The notes under the pieces were generated by a model that was given only the letters and a program-made list of their open reading frames with translations, was not told the DNA's origin and searched no databases. DNA of 64,000 nt from Octopus vulgaris (lineage: Eukaryota): the NCBI GenBank assembly GCA_951406725.2, contig OX597815.1, forward strand, positions 101,866,001-101,930,000, read 5' to 3'. The position numbers and the translations under genes are program-made. This document shows positions 8,493 through 62,414 of this stretch, in pieces; position 1 is the stretch's first letter, and every line of letters begins with the position of its first letter.

Positions 8493-9317
8493 CTGCATCT
8501 ATGTATGTGTGTGTGTATGTATGTGTATGTATGTGTGTATGTGTGTGTATGTATGTGTGTATGTATGTATGCATTTCCATTGAGTCAACCTCATTTCTAC
8601 ATAGCAGACCGTTACATAAACAGACAAAGGTACATACATACATGCACACTCACACATACATACACACACATTCACACATACACATACATACACACACACA
8701 CACATACATAGATACATATACACACACACATACATGCATACATACATATACACATACATGCATACACACGCACGCACTACAAAAACCGAGTAAAAAATTT
8801 CAGTTATCTCTTTCTTTCACACAGACAGATACATAAAAGAAGGCCGTTTGTATGAAATAGAGTGAGTATTGTGTGTTGGTGGTGGTGGTGGTGGCGATGA
8901 TAATTATCATTAGGAAAAAGAGTGAGTGAGTGAGGAAGACATATACATAAATTGTGGCGATGATAATTCTCCCTATGAATGCAAACAGATACATCAAAGA
9001 AAGCCGCCTGACGACCTTATAAAGACAAAGTGAAAGGGAGTTGAGGGGAATACATTAAATAACGGGAGTGGATATTGTCAACGTTATAAATGAAGGGGAG
9101 TAAGAGAGGGAAAGAAGGAAATAGTGTGAGTGAAGAAGATGGCCCCTAGCAACCACACCTTTTAAGATAGGGATTTCTAAGGTAGCCCACGCGCATCGTC
9201 ACCTCATTCTACATGTCCCTGTAAATTTTGGAGCGAATCAGACGGGTCGTAGTGGCATTGAAAGCGATCCAAGCGGTAAAAACGCATTTCAGTTTTATAT
9301 ATATTTATATATATATA

Positions 9318-9387
<70 letters not shown>

Positions 9388-12408: not shown

Positions 12409-12704
<296 letters not shown>

Positions 12705-12706
12705 TT

Positions 12707-14218
12707 ATGTTTGACTTTTACTTTACATTTGTACAAGATGGCTCCAAGTCTCACCCAGAGACCTCAAGAGACAAGTTGAAAGTTCATGTTGGTGTTATGC
12801 CGAGGGTGCCATATATTTGGTTTTGTACATAGTGTTGTTCTAGAGAATGTTTAAGAAACCATAAGAAAATTATGTTTGTTTTATAACTTGAGATTACATA
12901 GAAAGTATTTTGCATAAGATAAGAGCAGTTCCCATGAGCACTATCTTTTGAATTTCTGCCATTTTGGGGTTTCCTGGTATCTGAGCTAGGTAGCATTAAG
13001 CCCCTTTTGCTGTCATTCCCAGGGCACCTATGACAACAGGCATTGTTTTAGTCTTCAGGTTCCACATTTTGCTAATTTCTATTTCAAGATCGTTATACTT
13101 GCTCAGTTTTTGGTATTACTTAACAGATAGGTTTATATCGATTGGGACTGTTATATCAATGAGGAGGCATGATTTTTGTCTGAAGTCTTTCAATATGATG
13201 TCTGGCCTATTCGCATCTATCTTTCTTTCAGTCTGAATGGTGAAGTTCCAGAGGAGTGAGATGTGATCATTTTCAAGCACTAGAGGTGATTTGCGTTCCC
13301 ACCAGTTTTTATCATGGGGCAAGTCCAGGCTTTCGCAAATTACCCAGTGAATATATTGTGCAGTTCTATCATGCCTGTTGAGATACTCTGTAGGCGCAAA
13401 AAGACTGCACTTAGAAACAACATGATCAATAGTTTCATTTTGTTGTTGACATACACGACATATTGGGCTACTGCCGTTCTTTAATATATTGGCCTGGTAG
13501 TTTCTTGTTGGTAGGCATTGATCGTGAGCTGCTATGATAAACCCTTCTGTTTCAGATTTTAAGTCAGAGGCCATTAGCCATTGATGGGTCAGGACTTTGT
13601 CAACATCGGCATTATTCGCTCTCTGGGTATTTGCCATTGAGAAGTTTTTCTTGCCATTTATCAGTCAGAATATCTAAGGCAGCAGTTTTTTGCACGGGTT
13701 TTCATGCGCTTAGCTTTTTCTGCGTTTGTTTCTCGTATGTCTAATTCCGGAATTTGTTGTATTCTGAATTCACTTAAATATTCCTTTGCCTGTTTTGTTA
13801 CTAAGTATGATGCTTTCTTGTTTTCATGTTCTGAGACAAGTTTTAACATCCAGTCCTCAGAGTTTTTCAGGTAGGTGTCTAGGCCAATTGTGGCAATCTT
13901 CATTGTTAATGCCAGTTGTAAAAGTCCACGGCTTCCCTCTTTTCTTGGCAGATAAAGTCGTTCTATATCTATCTTAGGGTGGTGCATTCTATGCATTGTC
14001 AACAGTTTTCGTATTTTTCTGTCAAGATTACATATTTCAGTAATTGACCAGTTAACGATTTTGAAACTGTACGTCACGACTTGTATGGCTAAAGCATTGA
14101 TCGCTTTGATTCTGTTTCTCGCATTTCGCTCTGTCTTGAGTATTGCTCTTACTCTGCGATAACATTCTCTCCCGATCCTTTCCTTCATCACTGGATGCCT
14201 TATTCTGTCCCCTTCATC
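12707..14218 (-). mobile_element. 5'-truncated Dong/R4-clade non-LTR retrotransposon (RT thumb, CCHC zinc knuckle, RLE endonuclease), frameshifted
   Basis: Motifs LDRKIRKLLTMHRMHHPK..ERLYLPRKEGSRGL; CRVC..ETIDHVVSKC; RHDR; NRPDIILKD..LLIDITVP; MPVVIGALG. The 3' end abuts (TAA)n(CAA)n at 12581-12706. Confidence 0.92.
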
Positions 14219-14362
14219 CAACATCGAAAAATACCCTAGGAATGAGAGCCTAGGTTCGAAATTTCCCCCAAGACACCTTATGAAGGCTGGACGATATATC
14301 AGCCGACAGGTTGTGTTAACAAACAAGATGAGGATAAATATCCGTCAAATGTAAATAATGTA
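14219..14362 (+). mobile_element. Inverted copy of the Penelope-like terminal repeat
   Basis: CAACATCGAAAAATACC...CCTTATGAAGGCTG..CAGCCGACAGGTTGTGTT...GTAAATAATGTA; reverse complement of 12441-12585. Confidence 0.7.
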
Positions 14363-14754
14363 AAGAATCTGATGTTATTTGGAATTAAAATTGGAAAATT
14401 GGGTAATTTTAGCCAATCAACAAACAGCGTGGTAGGTAATTTTAGCCAATCAACAAACAGCGTGGCATTAGCAGCTTGTTACCATGACCACCACTCGTGT
14501 TTGTGTCGCACGTTGTTCTGAGTTGATTCTTCACACCACGAGATTCTATTGACCCGCGTGTTTTGTTTTAACTTTTCTATGTTAGTATACAACATACTTT
14601 TCTGTGCTTCTGTGTGTTAGTGTTTTTACATATTTTTCATTTCGTATATTTTTGGGACAAATTCTTTGTTAACCAGAGTTATTCTTAACGTAATTTACAA
14701 ATCCAAGCATGAAAACGTTACTCCACTTTGGAGTTTTGGAGACAGATGCCCCCT

Positions 14755-23257: not shown

Positions 23258-23478
23258 TGAGCTTGTTCCCCTTCACACTACCACTACCACCACCACTTGA
23301 CAACCGGCGCTGATGTGTTTACGTTTCTATATCTTCGGCAAAAGAACAGATGGAATAAGGACTAGGCTTTTGAAAAAATATATGCTGGGGTCGATACATT
23401 CGACTAAAAAATTCTTCAAGGCAATGTCTCAACATGGCCACAGTCTAATAACTGACACAACTAAAATATAAAAGATAA
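22831..23478 (+). mobile_element. SINE family A copy plus a second 3' half
   Basis: GCTGTGTGGTAAGAAGCTTGCTTCCC head; two GAATAAG.ACTAGGCTT cores. Confidence 0.75.
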
Positions 23479-23550
<72 letters not shown>

Positions 23551-23552
<2 letters not shown>

Positions 23553-25455
23553 CCGCGGTTGGATCGCTGCCTTATACAGCGGCATCCGCTCAGTAGTTCG
23601 CGTAAATGGTCATCTATCCAGACCTTTTAACATCATGCGTTCGGTTCGTCAGGGATGCCCCCTCTCATCGCTGCTGTATGTACTGACTCTTGAGCCACTA
23701 CTGCGGAAACTGGCGACGCTGAGGGGCATCCCACGAGAGCTGGGATGCGGGAGGAGCGTGTCTGCATACGCGGATGACGTCACCGTCATAGTGTCGAGCT
23801 ACGAGCACATCGAGCTGGTCGGCGAGACACTGAAAGAATACGAAGCGGTAACGGGAGCAAAAATTAACCGGGAAAAGTCAGTGGGCTTGCGGCTCGGCAC
23901 CTGGAGAAGCAAGCCCATGCCGTCCAACAGCGTCTCCATCGTGGGACGCTGGACGGACGGACCGGTTAAATTGCTCGGGGTCTGGTTCGGTCCGGACCTC
24001 CAAATGGAGAAGAACTGGGGCGAGATAACGACTAGGGTGGCTACTCTCACCCAGAAATGGACTGAGAGAAAGCTATCCCTAAAAGGTCGGGCGGAGGTGG
24101 CGAACGCGTACATCGCATCCGTCATCGAGTATCGTCTGACCGTCGTGCCTTGTCCCGACCCTACCATCACCAAACTGGAACGCATACTCTTCCGCTTCTT
24201 GTGGAAGGGAAACGTTCCGATGGTTAGGCGATCCATTTGCTGCCAACACCCGCTAAATGGAGGGCTGGGCATGCCGTGGTTGATGATGCGCAGACATGCG
24301 CTGAGACTGCGACATCTCCGGCGCTTCATAGACAACGGTGAACAGGGGTGGTCGCCTTTTGTGCGGCGCGCTTTCCCGCAGCTCGTCTCCTTGGACGAAC
24401 TACAGTCATGGATCAAGCAGAGACCGAGGCTAGGCCAATGGCACCGCGAGTGTCGCGTTGCTCTCAAGCAACTCTGCCGTCCGGGATCGAACTTGTGCGA
24501 CTCCATCACAACAAAGGCATTCTATAGAGGATTAGTGGAGGGGAGGTGCGACGACGAACTCGGGCAGAGTCTGGGCGTCGACGAGGAACACCTGACCCGC
24601 CTGCTCAGGACAACTTTCGGGCCGGGACCTATGAACAATCACCAAAGATCCCTGGCCTGGCAGTGCTATCGAGAAGCATTACCTGTTCGGGATAAGCTCT
24701 ACAGACACGGTTCCAGACACACTGGACCGACTTGCCCGAGATGCGGTCAGAGCGACGAAACCGTTCTACACGCACTCGTGCAATGTCCAACCATTTCCGA
24801 CCTGTGGGCTTATGCCGAACGGCTGCTGTCACGTGTGGGACGAATCCGCCTATCGGCCGAGTCTATCGTGAGAATTGCTCCGCCCCCTTCCCTCAACCGG
24901 GAAGGCAAGGCAGTTTTCATCGTACTGGTGGCCATGGTGAAAGAATGTGTGTGGTGGACTCGAGCGAAAGGATTAGAGACAAACACTTACCTCTCTGGCC
25001 AATCGCTCATCAACTTTTTCAAGTACCACTTGAAAAGGAAGGTGAGAATGGAGAGGAAGTTTTGTCTCGCGAAAGATTCAAAAAAAGATGGGTGAATGTT
25101 GCAAAGATGGTGCGTGCTAGTAACGAAACCATTTTGAGCATGATCCTGTAGATCGTAAAGAAAGAAAGAAAGAGAGCATTTTTGACCTCATGTGTTTATT
25201 TCCTCCCTGACTGGGGTTCCCGTGGTCTTTTCTGTAGGCTTTTCTTCCCACGGATGAACCCAATCTTGTTATATCAATGTTTACACCATTATTTCTGTGA
25301 TACACGATTTTTTCTTTTTTTCCTTTTTTTCCTCCTCTCGATCCCTTTTGATCGCAATCTTACATTTTTTATTTTTTTCCACCCTCGAAAAGAAAAGCTC
25401 TGCATTTGTATTTGTCCCCTCTGTATTCAGCCCTGTATGGCTAATAAAAGAAAGT
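23551..25455 (+). mobile_element. Tx1/L1-clade LINE, 5'-truncated, copy 1 (RT C-half plus CCHC zf-RVT)
   Basis: SVRQGCPLS, SAYADDVT, GAKINREKS, KLLGVWF, LSLKGRA, GGLG, CPRC..ETVLHALVQC. One frameshift near 25060; the likely true stop is at 25151. Flanked by (TATC)n on both sides. Confidence 0.95.
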
Positions 25456-25492
25456 TATCTATCTATCTGTATATGTATGTATATATATCTCT

Positions 25493-27867: not shown

Positions 27868-27954
<87 letters not shown>

Positions 27955-28284
27955 TATGTATGTATGTATGTATTTGTGTCTCTGTTTTTCTTCGTCCAAC
28001 CCCATCGCCTGACAGCGGATGCTGGTTTGCTTACATCCTCGTAATTTAGCGGTACGGCAAAAGAGACCGATAGAATAAGTACTAGACTTATGAAGAATAA
28101 GTCCTGGGGTCAATTTGTTCGACTAAAGGCGTTGCTCCAGCATGGCTCAAGTCAAATGACTGAATTATAAGTATAAATATAAAAGACAACATACATACAC
28201 GACGCGCATAAACATTACACACATTGTGTATCTATACATACAAAATATAATATATTACAATACATTCACACATACACTCACATA

Positions 28285-28367
<83 letters not shown>

Positions 28368-28697
28368 TATGTATGTATGTATGTATTTGTGTCTCTGTTT
28401 TTCTTCGTCCAACCCCATCGCCTGACAGCGGATGCTGGTTTGCTTACATCCTCGTAATTTAGCGGTACGGCAAAAGAGACCGATAGAATAAGTACTAGAC
28501 TTATGAAGAATAAGTCCTAGGGTCAATTTGTTCGACTAAAGGCGTTGCTCCAGCATGGCTCAAGTCAAATGACTGAATTATAAGTATAAATATAAAAGAC
28601 AACATACATACACGACGCGCATAAACATTACACACATTGTGTATCTATACATACAAAATATAATATATTACAATACATTCACACATACACTCACATA

Positions 28698-28763
<66 letters not shown>
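27868..28763. repeat. Near-perfect tandem duplication (about 415-bp unit) bounded by (TA)n
   Basis: 27912-28285 recurs at 28331-28700. The only non-microsatellite difference I saw is CCTGGGG versus CCTAGGG. Confidence 0.92.
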
Positions 28764-47015: not shown

Positions 47016-47023
<8 letters not shown>

Positions 47024-47588
47024 AGGGACTAAAGCCATCTGAATATGGCTAGGGACAGGGCAGGGTGGTGGGGGTGTTACTGTTGCATTTAGCCCCAGGC
47101 GAACATCGACGTCGCTAGATAGGCTTGACACCGTCACGGTGTCCTTTAACCTGCAAAGGGAGATAATTCCCCGATGAAGCGGAAACCACACACGGACCAT
47201 GGTTTCAAGGTGTATTGCCTATCGTCAACGTGTGGTAGGCCTCCGCTTCCTCGACGAAATCTCACTCTGCAGGTTATTCATATATAGATTTTCAAGCAAA
47301 ATACATTTGCTGATTTCGAAAATCTGTTCGACAGCAATAATAATTCTCTAAAAGAGATATAGACAGTAGCTGCTCGATAATATAAGGGACTAAAGCCATC
47401 TGAATATGGCTAGGGACAGGGCAGGGTGGTGGGGGTGTTACTGTTGCATTTAGCCCCAGGCGAACATCATCGGGGAATTATCTCCCTTTGCAGGTTAAAG
47501 GACACCGTGACGGTGTCAAGCCTATCTAGCGACGTCGATGTTCGCCTGGGGCTAAATGCAACAGTAACACCCCCACATTATTATTGCT
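47016..47588 (-). mobile_element. Young non-coding element: 361-bp unit with a 92-bp direct repeat and a 110-bp inverted copy, inserted in (TA)n
   Basis: 47016-47107 equals 47377-47468; 47467-47576 is the reverse complement of 47068-47177. The strand is inferred from Penelope-type architecture. Confidence 0.7.
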
Positions 47589-49184: not shown

Positions 49185-49740
49185 ATGTATGTATGCATGC
49201 ATGCATGCATGTATGTATGTATGTATGTATGTATGTATGTATGTATGTATGTATGTATGTATGTATGCATGCATGCATGCATGCATGTATGTATGTATGT
49301 ATGTATGTATGTATGTATGTATGTATGCATGTATGTAGTTTATTTCAAGATTTCTTGCCAATAGAGAAAGAACCGGTTTCTAACCTAGATCCAAGGTTCC
49401 TTCATTGGAATTTCAACCTCAACAACAGTATTTTTGTATGTATGTATGTATGTATGTATGTATGTATGTATGTATGTATGTATGTATGTATGTATGTATG
49501 TATGTATGTATGTATGCATGCATGCATGCATGTATGTATGTATGTATGTATGTATGTATGTATGTATGCATGTATGTAGTTTATTTCAAGATTTCTTGCC
49601 AATAGAGAAAGAACCGGTTTCTAACCTAGATCCAAGGTTCCTTCATTGGAATTTCAACCTCAACAACAGTATTTTTGTATGTATGTATGTATGTATGTAT
49701 GTATGTATGTATGTATGTATGTATGTATGTATGTATGCGT
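49185..49740. repeat. Tandem duplication (241-bp period) of a 100-bp hammerhead-like segment inside (ATGT)n
   Basis: 49336-49436 equals 49577-49677. The minus strand reads CCAATGA-AGG-AACCT-TGGATCT-AGGTT-A-GAAACCGGTTC. Confidence 0.85.
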
Positions 49741-50053
49741 GTATACGTGTGTGTGTATGGGGGTATGTTAATTTTGACCTGCTTCCTGCTTGGTAGCAAG
49801 GTTGCGAAGGAAAGCATTTTGTTTTATTCATCATCCTTTAAATCTTAAGGTCCTGTATATTTTTATTGTCCCAGATATCGCGATCATTTGTAGCGTATGA
49901 ATTAATGGGATGCATTTCCTTCCCAAGAATCCAAGCTTAGCCATACTTTGCTCATGGCGTCTTGGTACATATGCTGTTCCTCTAGTCATATAGCTGGCAT
50001 GAAACCGAAAGTGTATCTTAAGCACTGGATTTGCAAACTCCATATAATGGGTC

Positions 50054-52702: not shown

Positions 52703-53184
52703 CCTCGCTTTCTGTTTACCGACTCATGCCTCAATGAATGAATAAATGATTGATTAGTTAAGAAAAGAGGGGGTGCATGAGGTGGGGGAGTGGAGAATTT
52801 TTAGAAAGATAACAATGGAAAGGTAAAGATTAGGAATGAAAAATGGAATGAATGAAAGAGTGAAAGTTCAAAAGAATGAGCGAAGATCAAATAAATAAAT
52901 AAATGAACGAATCAACAACAACTGCGTAAATACGTAAATGTTTCACAGGTGTGAGGCTGGGAGCTGATTGTAGCTAACGTTAACGAACTTTATCCAAGAC
53001 AGTGTGTGTGTGTGTGTGTTTGTGTTGTGGGTGTGTGTTTGTTTGTGTATGTGTGTGTGTGAGTGTGCACGCGCATGTGTTTGTGTACGTGCGTGTGTCT
53101 GTCAATGTGCATGCTGAATGTGCGTGCATGTACCTGTGAGGGCGTATTGGGTCTAGGTGAGTGTGCGTATATACCTATTTCGTT

Positions 53185-53355
53185 ACTACCCACAAGGGGC
53201 TAAACATAGAGGGGACAGACAAGGACAGACATAGGTATTAAGTCGATTACATCGACCCCAGTGCGTAACTGGTACTTAATTTATCGACCCCGAAAGGATG
53301 AAAGGCAAAGTCGACCTTGGCGAAATTTGAACTCACAACGTAACGGCAGACGAAG
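53185..53355 (-). mobile_element. SINE family C fragment
   Basis: GTCGATTACATCGACCCCAGTGCGTAACTGGTACTTAATTTATCGACCCCGAAAGGATGAAAGGCAAAGTCGACC. Confidence 0.8.
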
Positions 53356-58180: not shown

Positions 58181-58193
58181 ACGGAGAGGATTA

Positions 58194-58230
<37 letters not shown>

Positions 58231-58238
58231 CTATCCAC

Positions 58239-58300
<62 letters not shown>

Positions 58301-58589
58301 GTCTATCTGTCTATCTGTCTGTATATATATTCCTTTTTCTTTCCATTTATTCTTTAATTTGTTTCAGTTATGCAGCTTCACTTATGGTGGAGTAGTATTG
58401 TGGAGTTACCCCGTTAAATGGCTGTTTGTTTGCTTCCCTGAGATTGGTCAAACTGATGTGGACACCTGTGATGAGAACCCATTGTAGCTCGAATATTTAT
58501 TGAGACTATTCATAATTTTTTTCTATCTACGGAGAAATTTTAATTTAAATTTATATGCGTACATCTCTCTCTCTATCTCTCTCTCTATC

Positions 58590-58634
<45 letters not shown>

Positions 58635-58637
58635 TTG

Positions 58638-60346
58638 TCGGAAAGACCCAACAAGGGGGACGTTATAGATAATTTCCGGCCCATCACTCTACTTAACGCA
58701 GATCTGATGATTTTGACCAAGGTGCTAGCCGAGAGGTTGGTGCTTGTTATCGAGAAACTGGTCGACAAGGCGCAAACATACACCGTGCCGGACAGGAGTG
58801 CCCATGACAACCTCCATCAGATGCGCTACATCATAGACAGGGTAATTAAGGAACTTGGCATGGGTGAGGCGCTGATCAATTTGGATCACTCGAAAACTTT
58901 CGATAGGGTCGACCATTGTTACTTGGAGGCTTCTTTATACAGCGACATCCTCTCGGTAGTGGATAACGTGTAGAGTGGCCAGTCTCACCCAGCAATGGGC
59001 CGAGAGGAAGCTATCTCTAAAAGGTTTGGCTGAGGTGGAGAATGCGTACATTGCATCCGTCATCTACTAACCTTTTGACTGTTGTGCCTTGTCCCGACCC
59101 TACTATCACAAAACTGGAGCGCATACTCTTCCGCTTTTTGTGGAAGGGAAGCGTTCCGGTGATCAGGCGACCCATTTGTTGCCAACATCCGCTAAACGGA
59201 GGTTTGGGCATGCTGTGGTTAATGATGCGCGGACATTCGCTGAGACTGCGACAGCCCTAGCTTTTCATAGACAACAGTGAACAGGTGAGGTCAACGTTTG
59301 TAAGATGCGCTTTCCTGCAAATCGTCCCTTTGACCGAACTGCAGTCGTGGATAAAGCAGAGACCGAGGCTGGACGAATGGCACCGCGAGTACCCCCTTGT
59401 TCTCGAGCAATTCTGCCGTCTGGGATCAAACTTGTGTGACTTCAATTCCACGAAGGCATTCTATAGAGGATTAGTGAAGGGGAAGTGCGACGACGTACGT
59501 GGGGAGACCCTGGGCGTCGACGAGGAATACCTAGCCCACCTCTTCACGACCACTTTCCAGAGATCCGTGGCCTGGCAGTGCTATCGGGAAACATTACTTG
59601 TTCGAGATAAGCTCTACAGGCAAGGTTCGAGAAACCGGACCGACTTGCTCGAGATACGGTCAGAGCGACGAAATCGTTCTGCACTGACTCGTGCAATGTC
59701 CAAACATTTAAGACCTGTAGGCTTATGTCGAACGGCTGCTCTCGTGCGTGGGACGAATTCGGTTATCAGCTGATTCTATCGTAAATATTGCCCCAACACC
59801 TTCATTTTACCGAGAAGGTAAGGCAGTTTTCATTGCACTGGTGGCTAAGGTGAATGAGTGTGGTTGACTCGTGCGAAAGGTTTAGAGACAAACACTTTCC
59901 TCTTTAGTCAACCGCTCATCACCTTTTTCAAGTACCACTTGAAAAGGAAGGTGACAATAGAGAGGGAAGCTTTGTTTCATGAAGGCTTCAATAAAAGGTT
60001 GGTGAATGTAGCGAAGGTGGTACGCGTGAATGAAGAAACCAATTTGAGCATGATCCTGTAAATCCAAAAGAGACAGAGAGCACTTTGCTCTCAGGTATTC
60101 TTTCCCTGCCTGAGGTTACCGTGGTCTTTTTCGTACGCTTTTCTTTCCACGGATCAACCTAATCTGTATTACATCTTTTACTCCCCCTTTTGGAAAATCT
60201 ATTATAAATGGAACATTGCTATTTCGCTGTTTACACGTCCCAGACGCTCTCGGTCCGTTTTGATCGTATTTTTCTTCCGAAAAGAAAAGTTCTACATTGT
60301 ATTGTCCCCTCTGTATTTGGCCCTGCGTGGCTAATAATGGAAGCTA
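58638..60346 (+). mobile_element. Tx1-clade LINE copy 2, internally deleted and decayed
   Basis: NFRPITLLNADL.IL.KVLAERL, DNLH, LD.SKTFDRVDH. It then jumps at about 58960 to the LSLKG region, so QGCP/YADD is missing. Same 3' UTR as copy 1. Preceded by (TATC)n. Confidence 0.9.
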
Positions 60347-62296
60347 GCTTTCGATAGTGTAGACCACCGATACTTGGAGGCTGTTCTCATAGCGGCTGGT
60401 TTCGATCCCGTCTTCTGCAGCTGGATAGCTACCTTGTACAGAGACATTTGTTCGGTAATCCGCGCGAATGGACATCTATCGAGACCTTTCGTCATTGCAC
60501 GTTCGGTCCGTCAGGGATGCTCCCTCACGTCGCTTCTGTACTTATTGACTCTCGAGTTCCTACTGCGAAAGCTGGCGACGCTGAGGGGCATCCCACGAGA
60601 ATTGGGATGCAAGACGAGCGTGTCCGCCTTCGCGGACGACGTCACCGTCATTGTGTCTAGCCAGGAGGACTTCGAGCTGGTCGGCGAGACACTGAAAGAC
60701 TACGAAGCAGTAACAGGAGCGAAAATCAACCCAGAAAAGTCAGTGGACTTGCGGCTTGGCACCTGGAGAAGTAAGCCCATGCCGTCTAACAGCGCCTCCG
60801 TCGTGGGACGCTGGACCGACGGTCTGGTCGAGATGCTTGGGGTCTGATTTGGTCCGGACCTCCAAATGGAGAAGAACTGGAACGAGATAACGAGTAGGGT
60901 GGTCACTCTCGCCCAGCAATGGGCCGAGAGGAAGCTGTCCCTAAAAGGTCGGGTGGAGGTGGCGAACACGTACATCGCGTTCGTCATCTACTACCGCCTG
61001 ACCGTCGTGCCATGTCCCGACCCTACCATCACCAAACTAGAACTCATTCTCCTCCGCTTCTTGTGGAAAGGATGCATTCCGATGGTCAGGCGATCCGTTT
61101 GCTGCCTACACTCGTTAAAAGGAGGGCTGAGCATGCCGTGGTTGATGATGCGCAAACATGCGCTGAGACTGCGACATCTCTGGCTCTACGTAGACGACGG
61201 TGAACAGATGTGGTCGCCGTTTGTGAGGCACGCTTTCCCACAGCTCGTCTCTTTGACTGAACTGCGGTCGTGGATGAAAAACAGGCCGAGGAAGGGAAAA
61301 TGGCACCGCGAGTGTCGCGTTGCTCTCTATGCCGTCCCGGGTCGAACTTGAGCGACTGCAACACAACCAAAGCATTCTATAGGGGATTAGTGGAGGGGAG
61401 GTACGACGACGACCTCGAGGCGAACCTGGGCATCAACGAGGAATACCTGATCCACCTGTTCAAGACGACTTTCGGGCCGAGACCTATGGACAACTTCCAG
61501 AGATCCTTGGCCTGGCAGTGCTATCGAGAAGCGCTATCCGTTCGGGATAAGCTCTTCAGGCATGGCTCGAGAAACACGGGGCCGACCTGCCCGAGATGCG
61601 GTCAGAGCGACGAAACCGTTCTGCACGCACTCGTACAGTGTCCAACCATTTCCGACCTGTGGACCTATGTCGAACGACTGCTATCGTGTGTGGGACGAGT
61701 CAGTTTATCAGCCGAGTCTATCGTGAATATTGTCGAGTCTCCTTCCTGGAAACGGGAAGGAAGTCCCGTTTTCATTGTACTCGTGGCTATGGTAAAAGAA
61801 TGTGTATGGTGGACGCGTCTGAAAGGTCTAGAGAAAACACTTTCCTATCTGGTGAATTTCTCATCAACTCCTTCAAGTATCACTTGAAGTGGAAGGTGAG
61901 AGTAGAGAAGGAAGTTTTCGTCTAGTAAAAATAGATGGGTGAATGTAGCAAGGATGGCACGTGTGACGGAACTACCTTGAGCATAATCCTATGAACCAGA
62001 AAAACAAAGGAAAAAAAAGAGAGTCACTTACTGTAATGTGTTTTTTGCATGACATTATTGCCTGAGGTTACCGTGGTCTTTTCCGTTGGCTTTTCTTTCC
62101 ACGAATAAACCAAATCTATTTCCCATTTTACACTATGATATTTCTGTTATACACGATCCCTATTGATTGGCTTCCTCCCTTTTTCTCACGATCGAAATGC
62201 TATCCCCAACTTTTTTTTTCTTACTTTCCCCCCAAAAAGCTCTACTTTGTATTTTGTCCCCTTGGTCTTCAGCCCTGTGTGGCCAATAAAGAAACA
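60347..62296 (+). mobile_element. Tx1-clade LINE copy 3, 5'-truncated
   Basis: SVRQGCSL, SAFADDVT, LSLKGRV, CPRC..HALVQC, with a stop at 60845 and frameshifts. The 3' end CAATAAAGAAACA is followed by (TATC)n to 62414. Confidence 0.93.
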
Positions 62297-62313
62297 TATC
62301 TATCCATCTATCC

Positions 62314-62414
<101 letters not shown>

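Follow-up and report, generated by a model that had tools for sequence, protein, structure and literature searches.

Does the truncated LINE that lies between (TATC)n arrays in this stretch of Octopus vulgaris DNA belong to a family that inserts by preference in (GATA/TATC)n microsatellites? A sequence-only reading had proposed a Tx1 family with this target. Our analysis of the window, that is, the whole 64-kb stretch of DNA, upheld part of the proposal: the reverse transcriptase (RT) falls on the Tx1 side, same-sense TATC is present at two 5′ truncations, and the copies are diverged. As to the targeting itself, the evidence comes from two loci only, with one junction pair without TATC and one SINE confound. 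We consider it fairly probable that the three copies found here represent a cephalopod Tx1-type LINE which inserts by preference in (TATC)n, using target-primed reverse transcription (TPRT) where the (GATA)n strand is predicted to be nicked; two loci cannot prove such a landing preference.

Three truncated copies of a Tx1-type LINE

The window is animal DNA rich in microsatellites, with 145 tandem-repeat rows and 218 perfect microsatellite runs, among which the AT, AC and ACAT classes dominate. BLAST revealed three copies of a Tx1-type LINE, all on the + strand. Copy 1 consists of a 5′-truncated ORF2 remnant (23552-25151), which encodes the C-terminal part of the RT and a zf-RVT zinc finger (RVT_1, 5.5e-13; zf-RVT, 5.2e-8), and of a 3′ UTR (25152-25455). 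Its reading frame is open over 502 aligned codons, with a single frameshift near 25057. The 3′ UTR contains AATAAA at 25443-25448, 7 nt ahead of the first TATC unit, and has no poly(A). Copy 2 (58635-60345), also 5′-truncated, is the most decayed of the three: the part corresponding to residues 402-541 of the homologue P0002 is missing through an internal deletion, five stops are found in its longest aligned frame, and its 3′ end has no TATC tract. Copy 3 (60346-62296) is 5′-truncated at the RT KAFD codons and fused directly behind copy 2, with AATAAA at 62285-62290.

When aligned to P0002, copy 1 starts at about residue 385, copy 2 at about residue 280, and copy 3 at about residue 364. All three share one 3′ end, which lies 6-7 nt after AATAAA, and poly(A) is absent from all of them. 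Three different 5′ ends with one common 3′ end are the signature of TPRT with variable truncation. The N-terminal APE endonuclease and ORF1 are absent through truncation in copies 1-3 and in P0002. A conserved 3′ stem-loop in the LINE was not supported (z-scores -1.2 to +0.8).

The pairwise identities of the three copies are 81%, 71% and 69%, and private differences number 106, 315 and 149 in copies 1, 2 and 3, respectively, over 1,655 three-way columns. This divergence indicates that the copies are separate insertions differing in age or subfamily, not segmental duplicates, and an origin as local duplicates was ruled out by the 69-81% identity. An insertion of copy 2 into copy 3 at the KAFD codons was also considered and rejected, because the sequence upstream of copy 2 contains nothing from the 5′ part of copy 3, and because copy 2 holds its own diverged version of these codons.

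In contig run X1, 22,011 records match the element, 3,321 of them at identities of at least 99%. These records show a family of many variants, and they are silent on insertion targets. Half or more of the words of the window stretch are contained in 20 of 24 sequencing runs. As for the loose ends of these records, 0 of 6 had TATC among those listed of 1,160; these ends resembled element variants, and ends at repeats were excluded.

TATC arrays at the junctions

The 5′ flank of copy 1 is a perfect (TATC)18 array of 73 nt (23479-23551, + strand), which meets an element truncated inside the RT. The last 3 nt of the array, TCT, are common to array and element, as judged from copy 3. At the other end, TATCTATCTATCT (13 nt, 25456-25468, + strand) directly adjoins the 3′ end of copy 1 and is followed by a compound AT-rich microsatellite (TA/TACA). 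The 5′ flank of copy 2 is a (TC)n/(TATC)n array (58563-58634, + strand) with 45 nt of perfect and ~70 nt of imperfect TATC. Its (TC)n-like stretch is found only upstream of the TATC run, and the repeat touching the junction is TATC. The 3′ flank of copy 3 is likewise (TATC)n, 118 nt long (62297-62414, + strand).

These results bear out what the sequence-only reading had described: about 70 bp of (TATC)n at the truncated 5′ end of copy 1, the short TATC stretch after its 3′ end, a copy 2 that follows (TATC)n at a different truncation point (58638 in that reading, 58635 here), and about 115 bp of (TATC)n behind copy 3. The single orientation relative to the repeat and the lack of poly(A) were likewise confirmed, as the three copies and the four touching arrays are all on the + strand.

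The 3′ end of copy 2 leads directly into the truncated 5′ end of copy 3 near 60345, with at most 3 in-phase TATC letters between them, so the 5′ junction of copy 3 is likewise without TATC; this direct fusion was absent from the sequence-only reading. TATC thus touches four of the six junctions (2/3 at 5′ ends and 2/3 at 3′ ends), which belong to two loci. When copy 1 is taken as one locus and copies 2 and 3 together as the other, all four outer edges are TATC in the same orientation, on both sides at both loci. No additional short copies of the LINE were found at other TATC arrays in the window.

The junction between copies 2 and 3 is shaped like a jump onto the 3′ end of another transcript. 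This agrees with a reading in which insertion itself generated the 5′ arrays, either by a jump of the RT from the truncated template to another transcript's UAUC tail or as slipped repeats, so that they would be products rather than targets. However, both jumps would have to halt inside the tail. In addition, copy 2 is far more decayed than copy 3, with 315 against 149 private changes and more stops, so two separate events fit better than one. We regard arrays written in this way as very unlikely.

The earlier objection that the 5′ flanks need more than a 3′ tail to account for them is sound. Two 5′ truncation points lie in same-sense TATC. The chance of such flanks was estimated from 116,664 position-strand pairs outside elements, with arrays touching elements counted, of which 372 (0.32%) had a same-sense TATC run of at least 12 nt as 5′ flank. 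At this background, the probability that two or more of three 5′ junctions lie in TATC is 3e-5, a post hoc figure with n=3. Same-sense TATC makes up 2.5-4.2% of microsatellite bases, and the probability is 2e-3 to 5e-3, also post hoc, if any microsatellite is favoured. An element-free TATC array is present at 58192-58320, ~250 nt from copy 2, which indicates that the region is locally TATC-rich. Microsatellites can also grow after insertion, and this is a point against targeting.

The second of these probabilities bears on the suggestion that the LINE prefers, or survives in, any AT-rich microsatellite and has a TATC tail besides, the match of the 5′ motif being a modest fluke. The 3′ flank of copy 1, which runs into TA/TACA, and the mixed TC/TATC 5′ flank of copy 2 are consistent with it. 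Yet both informative 5′ junctions are TATC, although same-sense TATC is such a small share of microsatellite bases and other classes dominate. A general preference of this kind is therefore improbable in our judgement.

SINEs and the origin of the TATC tracts

A repeat copy at 23288-23478 (+ strand), which we take to be a SINE, was delimited by self-BLAST and by an nhmmer profile of the window copies, and its 3′ end abuts the TATC array before copy 1. The profile gave nine matches, eight of them independent, with one pair being a local duplication. TATC is found within 80 nt after the SINE end in two matches, that is, at 1 of 7 independent ends apart from copy 1's own. The 5′ array of copy 1 is confounded by this adjoining SINE end, the 1/7 rate being far above 0.32%. 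The 5′ array of copy 2 has no SINE at its edge.

Another SINE-like copy (53175-53345, - strand) has a LINE-like 3′ tail. Alignment showed that ~45 nt of this tail are common with the LINE and stop at the same end position (window-wide BLAST, E = 0.01). A 16-nt direct repeat (15/16) brackets the copy, which lies outside TATC. By its sequence it is a candidate for a SINE-LINE partnership with a Tx1-type element. Because it stops at the end position of the LINE without TATC, it hints that the tail itself does not include TATC. Provided that it was mobilized by the same machinery, this one copy also argues against strict endonuclease specificity.

These repeats matter for the simplest reading without targeting, in which (TATC)n would be the element's own 3′ tail, as in RTE and CR1/L2, and the 5′ arrays would be coincidental, one of them being the SINE's. 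Several observations speak for it, namely the 3′ TATC in copies 1 and 3, the SINE confound with TATC at 1/7 other SINE ends, the 218 perfect microsatellite runs in 64 kb, and the microsatellite 3′ ends reported as frequent in RTE elements (PMC9115989). But this reading needs two coincidences with the right motif and strand (P of 3e-5 to 5e-3), one of them at copy 2, where no SINE adjoins the 5′ array, and no such tail was found on the tail-sharing SINE or on the sister lineage described below. We consider this reading without targeting unlikely.

Relatives of the LINE

The closest named homologue over the length of the LINE is from Argonauta hians (64% identity), and a piece of the LINE lies within an Octopus bimaculoides gene model. 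The RT tree (LG+G4, midpoint root) had 50 rows, of which 41 came from the 91 of a quick tree and 9 were new; copy 1 fills 47% of its columns, and its anchors are not curated Repbase entries. In this tree one clade (100/99) unites the window copy with P0002, P0178 and the Argonauta protein, and it is sister to a tandem-array lineage (100/100). Both sit inside a 43-row group (100/94), which also takes in a fish protein named YTX2 and the U2/U1/5S-flanked elements. Outside this group are two distant rows and five frog rows, which we infer to be L1 proper. Within the 43-row group the family and the U2, U1 and 5S groups come together in one set of unresolved branching (87/94). The quick 91-row tree, to which we give lower weight, puts the family beside other, unlabelled metagenome rows (88). 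The RT tree thus places the family with Tx1 within the L1 group, as a cephalopod branch of its own. The comparison with Kibi and Koshi by RT phylogeny, which the earlier reading had proposed, thus gave the Tx1 side and a separate branch, with no named Kibi or Koshi among the rows. No sequence of either name was present among the homologue matches.

The sister lineage has 44% identity, and its loci in the MAG record described next have 41-43%. Exo_endo_phos was detected in its full-length protein P0005 and zf-CCHC in the ORF1 of L090, and the best PDB match of P0005 is human L1 ORF2p (9e-69; R2, 5e-16). In the prokaryote-genome scan, apparent animal-host contigs within one MAG record (CAXXMW01; loci among L081-L132) were found to hold head-to-tail arrays of intact full-length sister elements (89 matches), with an ORF1 of ~630-740 aa (zinc knuckle in the one scanned) and an ORF2 of 1,155 aa. 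Contigs C3-C19 of G001 (loci among L081-L132 and L134-L153) reach 94 kb and are mostly stacked sister LINEs with a unit of 6.4-6.9 kb, each subfamily having its own ~15-nt spacer after AATAAA and no poly(A). The presence of such contigs in a bacterial MAG is binning contamination together with an unusual self-stacking retrotransposon array.

A search by pattern gave 58 sister-lineage 3′ ends, 40 of them distinct, in which AATAAA is followed by a ~15-nt spacer and mostly then by the next copy. None of the 40 distinct ends, which are from one assembly, non-independent, and counted only where they fit the 3′-end pattern, had TATC or GATA within 40 nt. Judging by these ends, the sister lineage resembles the window family in ending without poly(A) and in stacking in tandem, but not in the GATA association. 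Since it also stacks head-to-tail without a microsatellite, a tandem arrangement alone is no sign of GATA targeting. Together with the tail-sharing SINE without TATC, the 0/40 count hints that TATC is not a built-in tail.

More distant relatives are flanked by U2 (L001, L009, L011), U1 (L129), tRNA genes (L066) or 5S sequence (L015, L018, L019, L122, L126), and those next to U2, U1 or 5S sequence rank near the top of the distant RTs by identity (33-43% to P0002). In L129, a host-like MAG contig, U1 snRNA lies on both sides of a Tx1-type element (2241-2404 and 9166-9342). The Tx1-type ORF2s of Patella caerulea (P0036, P0163-P0176) have closely spaced tags (SNE40_004279-004307, 023685-023689), which suggests clustered insertion in a multicopy target. 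In the metagenome scan, where 80 of 446 loci were kept, all relatives were distant (24-39% in the best segment). No relatives of the LINE turned up among viral proteins, its 3′-end motif had one viral match, and no taxonomically informative relatives were found in the ESM Atlas.

Other repeats in the window

A 5′-truncated LINE that has both a zinc finger and a restriction-like endonuclease motif is located at ~12700-14210 (- strand), where it ends in (TAA)30; a short repeat flanks it in inverted copies at 12435-12585 and 14219-14368. Its motifs are presumably those of an R4/Dong-like element. It has (TAA)n at its 3′ end and no TAA at its 5′ truncation. Dong is given as TAA-targeting (PMC3812793), which indicates that a repeat missing at one 5′ junction is not fatal to targeting. 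Near-perfect tandem duplications (97-99%) with periods of 413 nt and 241 nt are present at 27873-28744 and 49197-49744, with microsatellites at their edges; they are either recent slippage or an assembly artefact. In the region 47016-47576, direct copies of 92 nt and inverted copies of 110 nt, both 100% identical, make up a local duplication-inversion that lies between (TA)n and (GATA)n.

Proposed mechanism of insertion

In the explanation that we prefer, with insertion into (TATC)n by preference, the nick in the GATA strand would be made by the APE endonuclease, which copies 1-3 have lost and the sister lineage has kept. Cleavage of a transcript 10-30 nt after AAUAAA is the textbook spacing. 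With the poly(A) signal only 6-7 nt before the array, the transcript of a copy residing in an array would probably carry 1-5 UAUC units at its end, and these could pair with the nicked strand. Such pairing would account for the uncopied poly(A) and may strengthen the choice of target. Joining of the truncated 5′ end would rely on microhomology (in copy 1, TCT), the array would be split in two, and a target-site duplication inside the TATC array would be invisible. The fusion of copies 2 and 3 may go back to a second insertion where the TATC tract following an older copy 2 began, with loss of the tract, or alternatively to a template jump.

By analogy with Kibi and Koshi, the main determinant would be the preference of the endonuclease, with RNA-DNA pairing as a helper. 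Endonuclease specificity has been reported as the main determinant of target choice, and head-to-tail stacking is known in target-preferring elements, as in tandem SINEU-3 (PMC4494074). The mechanism of microsatellite targeting is poorly understood according to a 2013 review (PMC3812793). A fuller scenario would join an independent cephalopod (GATA)n specificity, as against that of fish Kibi and Koshi, to a UAUC guide made by read-through of the poly(A) signal, to array splitting, and to a 3′ tail given to a guide-less octopod SINE that lands elsewhere; taken as a whole, it is conceivable but doubtful.

Comparison with known systems

The statement in the earlier reading that the Tx1 clade has microsatellite-specific families agrees with reports on Kibi, specific for (TC)n, and Koshi, specific for (TTC)n, both Tx1-clade LINEs of teleost fish (PMC4494074, PMC3812793). 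According to the methods of PMC4494074, a family counts as target-specific when the target is found in >20% of flanks genome-wide. Like Kibi and Koshi, the window family is an APE-type, Tx1-side LINE found with one microsatellite class in one orientation. It differs from them in that theirs are pure pyrimidine/purine repeats in fish, whereas the window family has TATC/GATA in a cephalopod, and in that its branch stands apart from the vertebrate YTX2-named group. All four outer junctions have (TATC)n and not the (TC)n or (TTC)n of the fish families. Because the motif differs and no named Kibi or Koshi is present in the RT tree, the window family is not filed under either of them.

Crocodilian Tx1 families, reported near Kibi and Koshi, prefer (TTCC)n or (TTTC)n (PMC4494074). 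The likeness here is a tetranucleotide microsatellite preference inferred from flanks; the motif and host are different, and the crocodilian preference was established by genome-wide flanks, and that of the window family is judged from two loci. Keno, whose target is U2 snRNA, Mutsu and Tx1L are of the Tx1 clade, as is the window family. Mutsu targets 5S rRNA. Unlike the window family, these elements have RNA genes or a DNA transposon as targets, and no starred branch joins them to it. Waldo (ACAY), Mino (AC) and Dong (TAA) are further microsatellite-targeting non-LTR elements (PMC3812793, PMC4640811), and Togen targets (TG)n (PMC4640811); they differ from the window family in both clade and motif.

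The sequence-only reading knew of no described GATA-specific Tx1 family, and our findings agree. No GATA/TATC-specific Tx1 or LINE was found in the portions of the literature covered; such a family may yet be catalogued in Repbase or Dfam, or named by Kojima and Fujiwara 2004 or by PMC4494074 in its Fig. 3 or supplements. The targets given in the part of PMC3812793 covered are ACAY, AC, TC, TTC and TAA, without GATA, and no word in the main text of PMC4494074 starts with GATA or TATC. Nothing on a GATA-specific Tx1 was found in the covered parts of PMC8869645, PMC4758252, PMC5786205 and PMC3747384, and PMC9115989 has no mention of Tx1. An annotation of Octopus vulgaris lists 80 L1-Tx1 families with 56.3 Mb, of which 13 families are recently active with 421 insertions (PMC13282606, in the part covered), and the window family is probably among these automated consensus families. 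The word 'target' is absent from the main text and one supplement of that paper, and octopus L1-Tx1 elements are counted without targets in the corresponding part of PMC8967140.

If the preference is confirmed, a mixed purine/pyrimidine tetranucleotide and a mollusc would join the microsatellite-specific APE LINEs, whose reported motifs are TC, TTC, TTCC/TTTC, AC and ACAY, and the (GATA)n preference of the window family would probably be of independent origin. The window family, the sister lineage without GATA and the tail-sharing SINE make a natural comparison between endonuclease preference and RNA-DNA pairing. Octopod (GATA)n markers could have a multicopy LINE as one flank. Compared with the systems already described, the family extends a known targeting strategy and is not a new kind of system.
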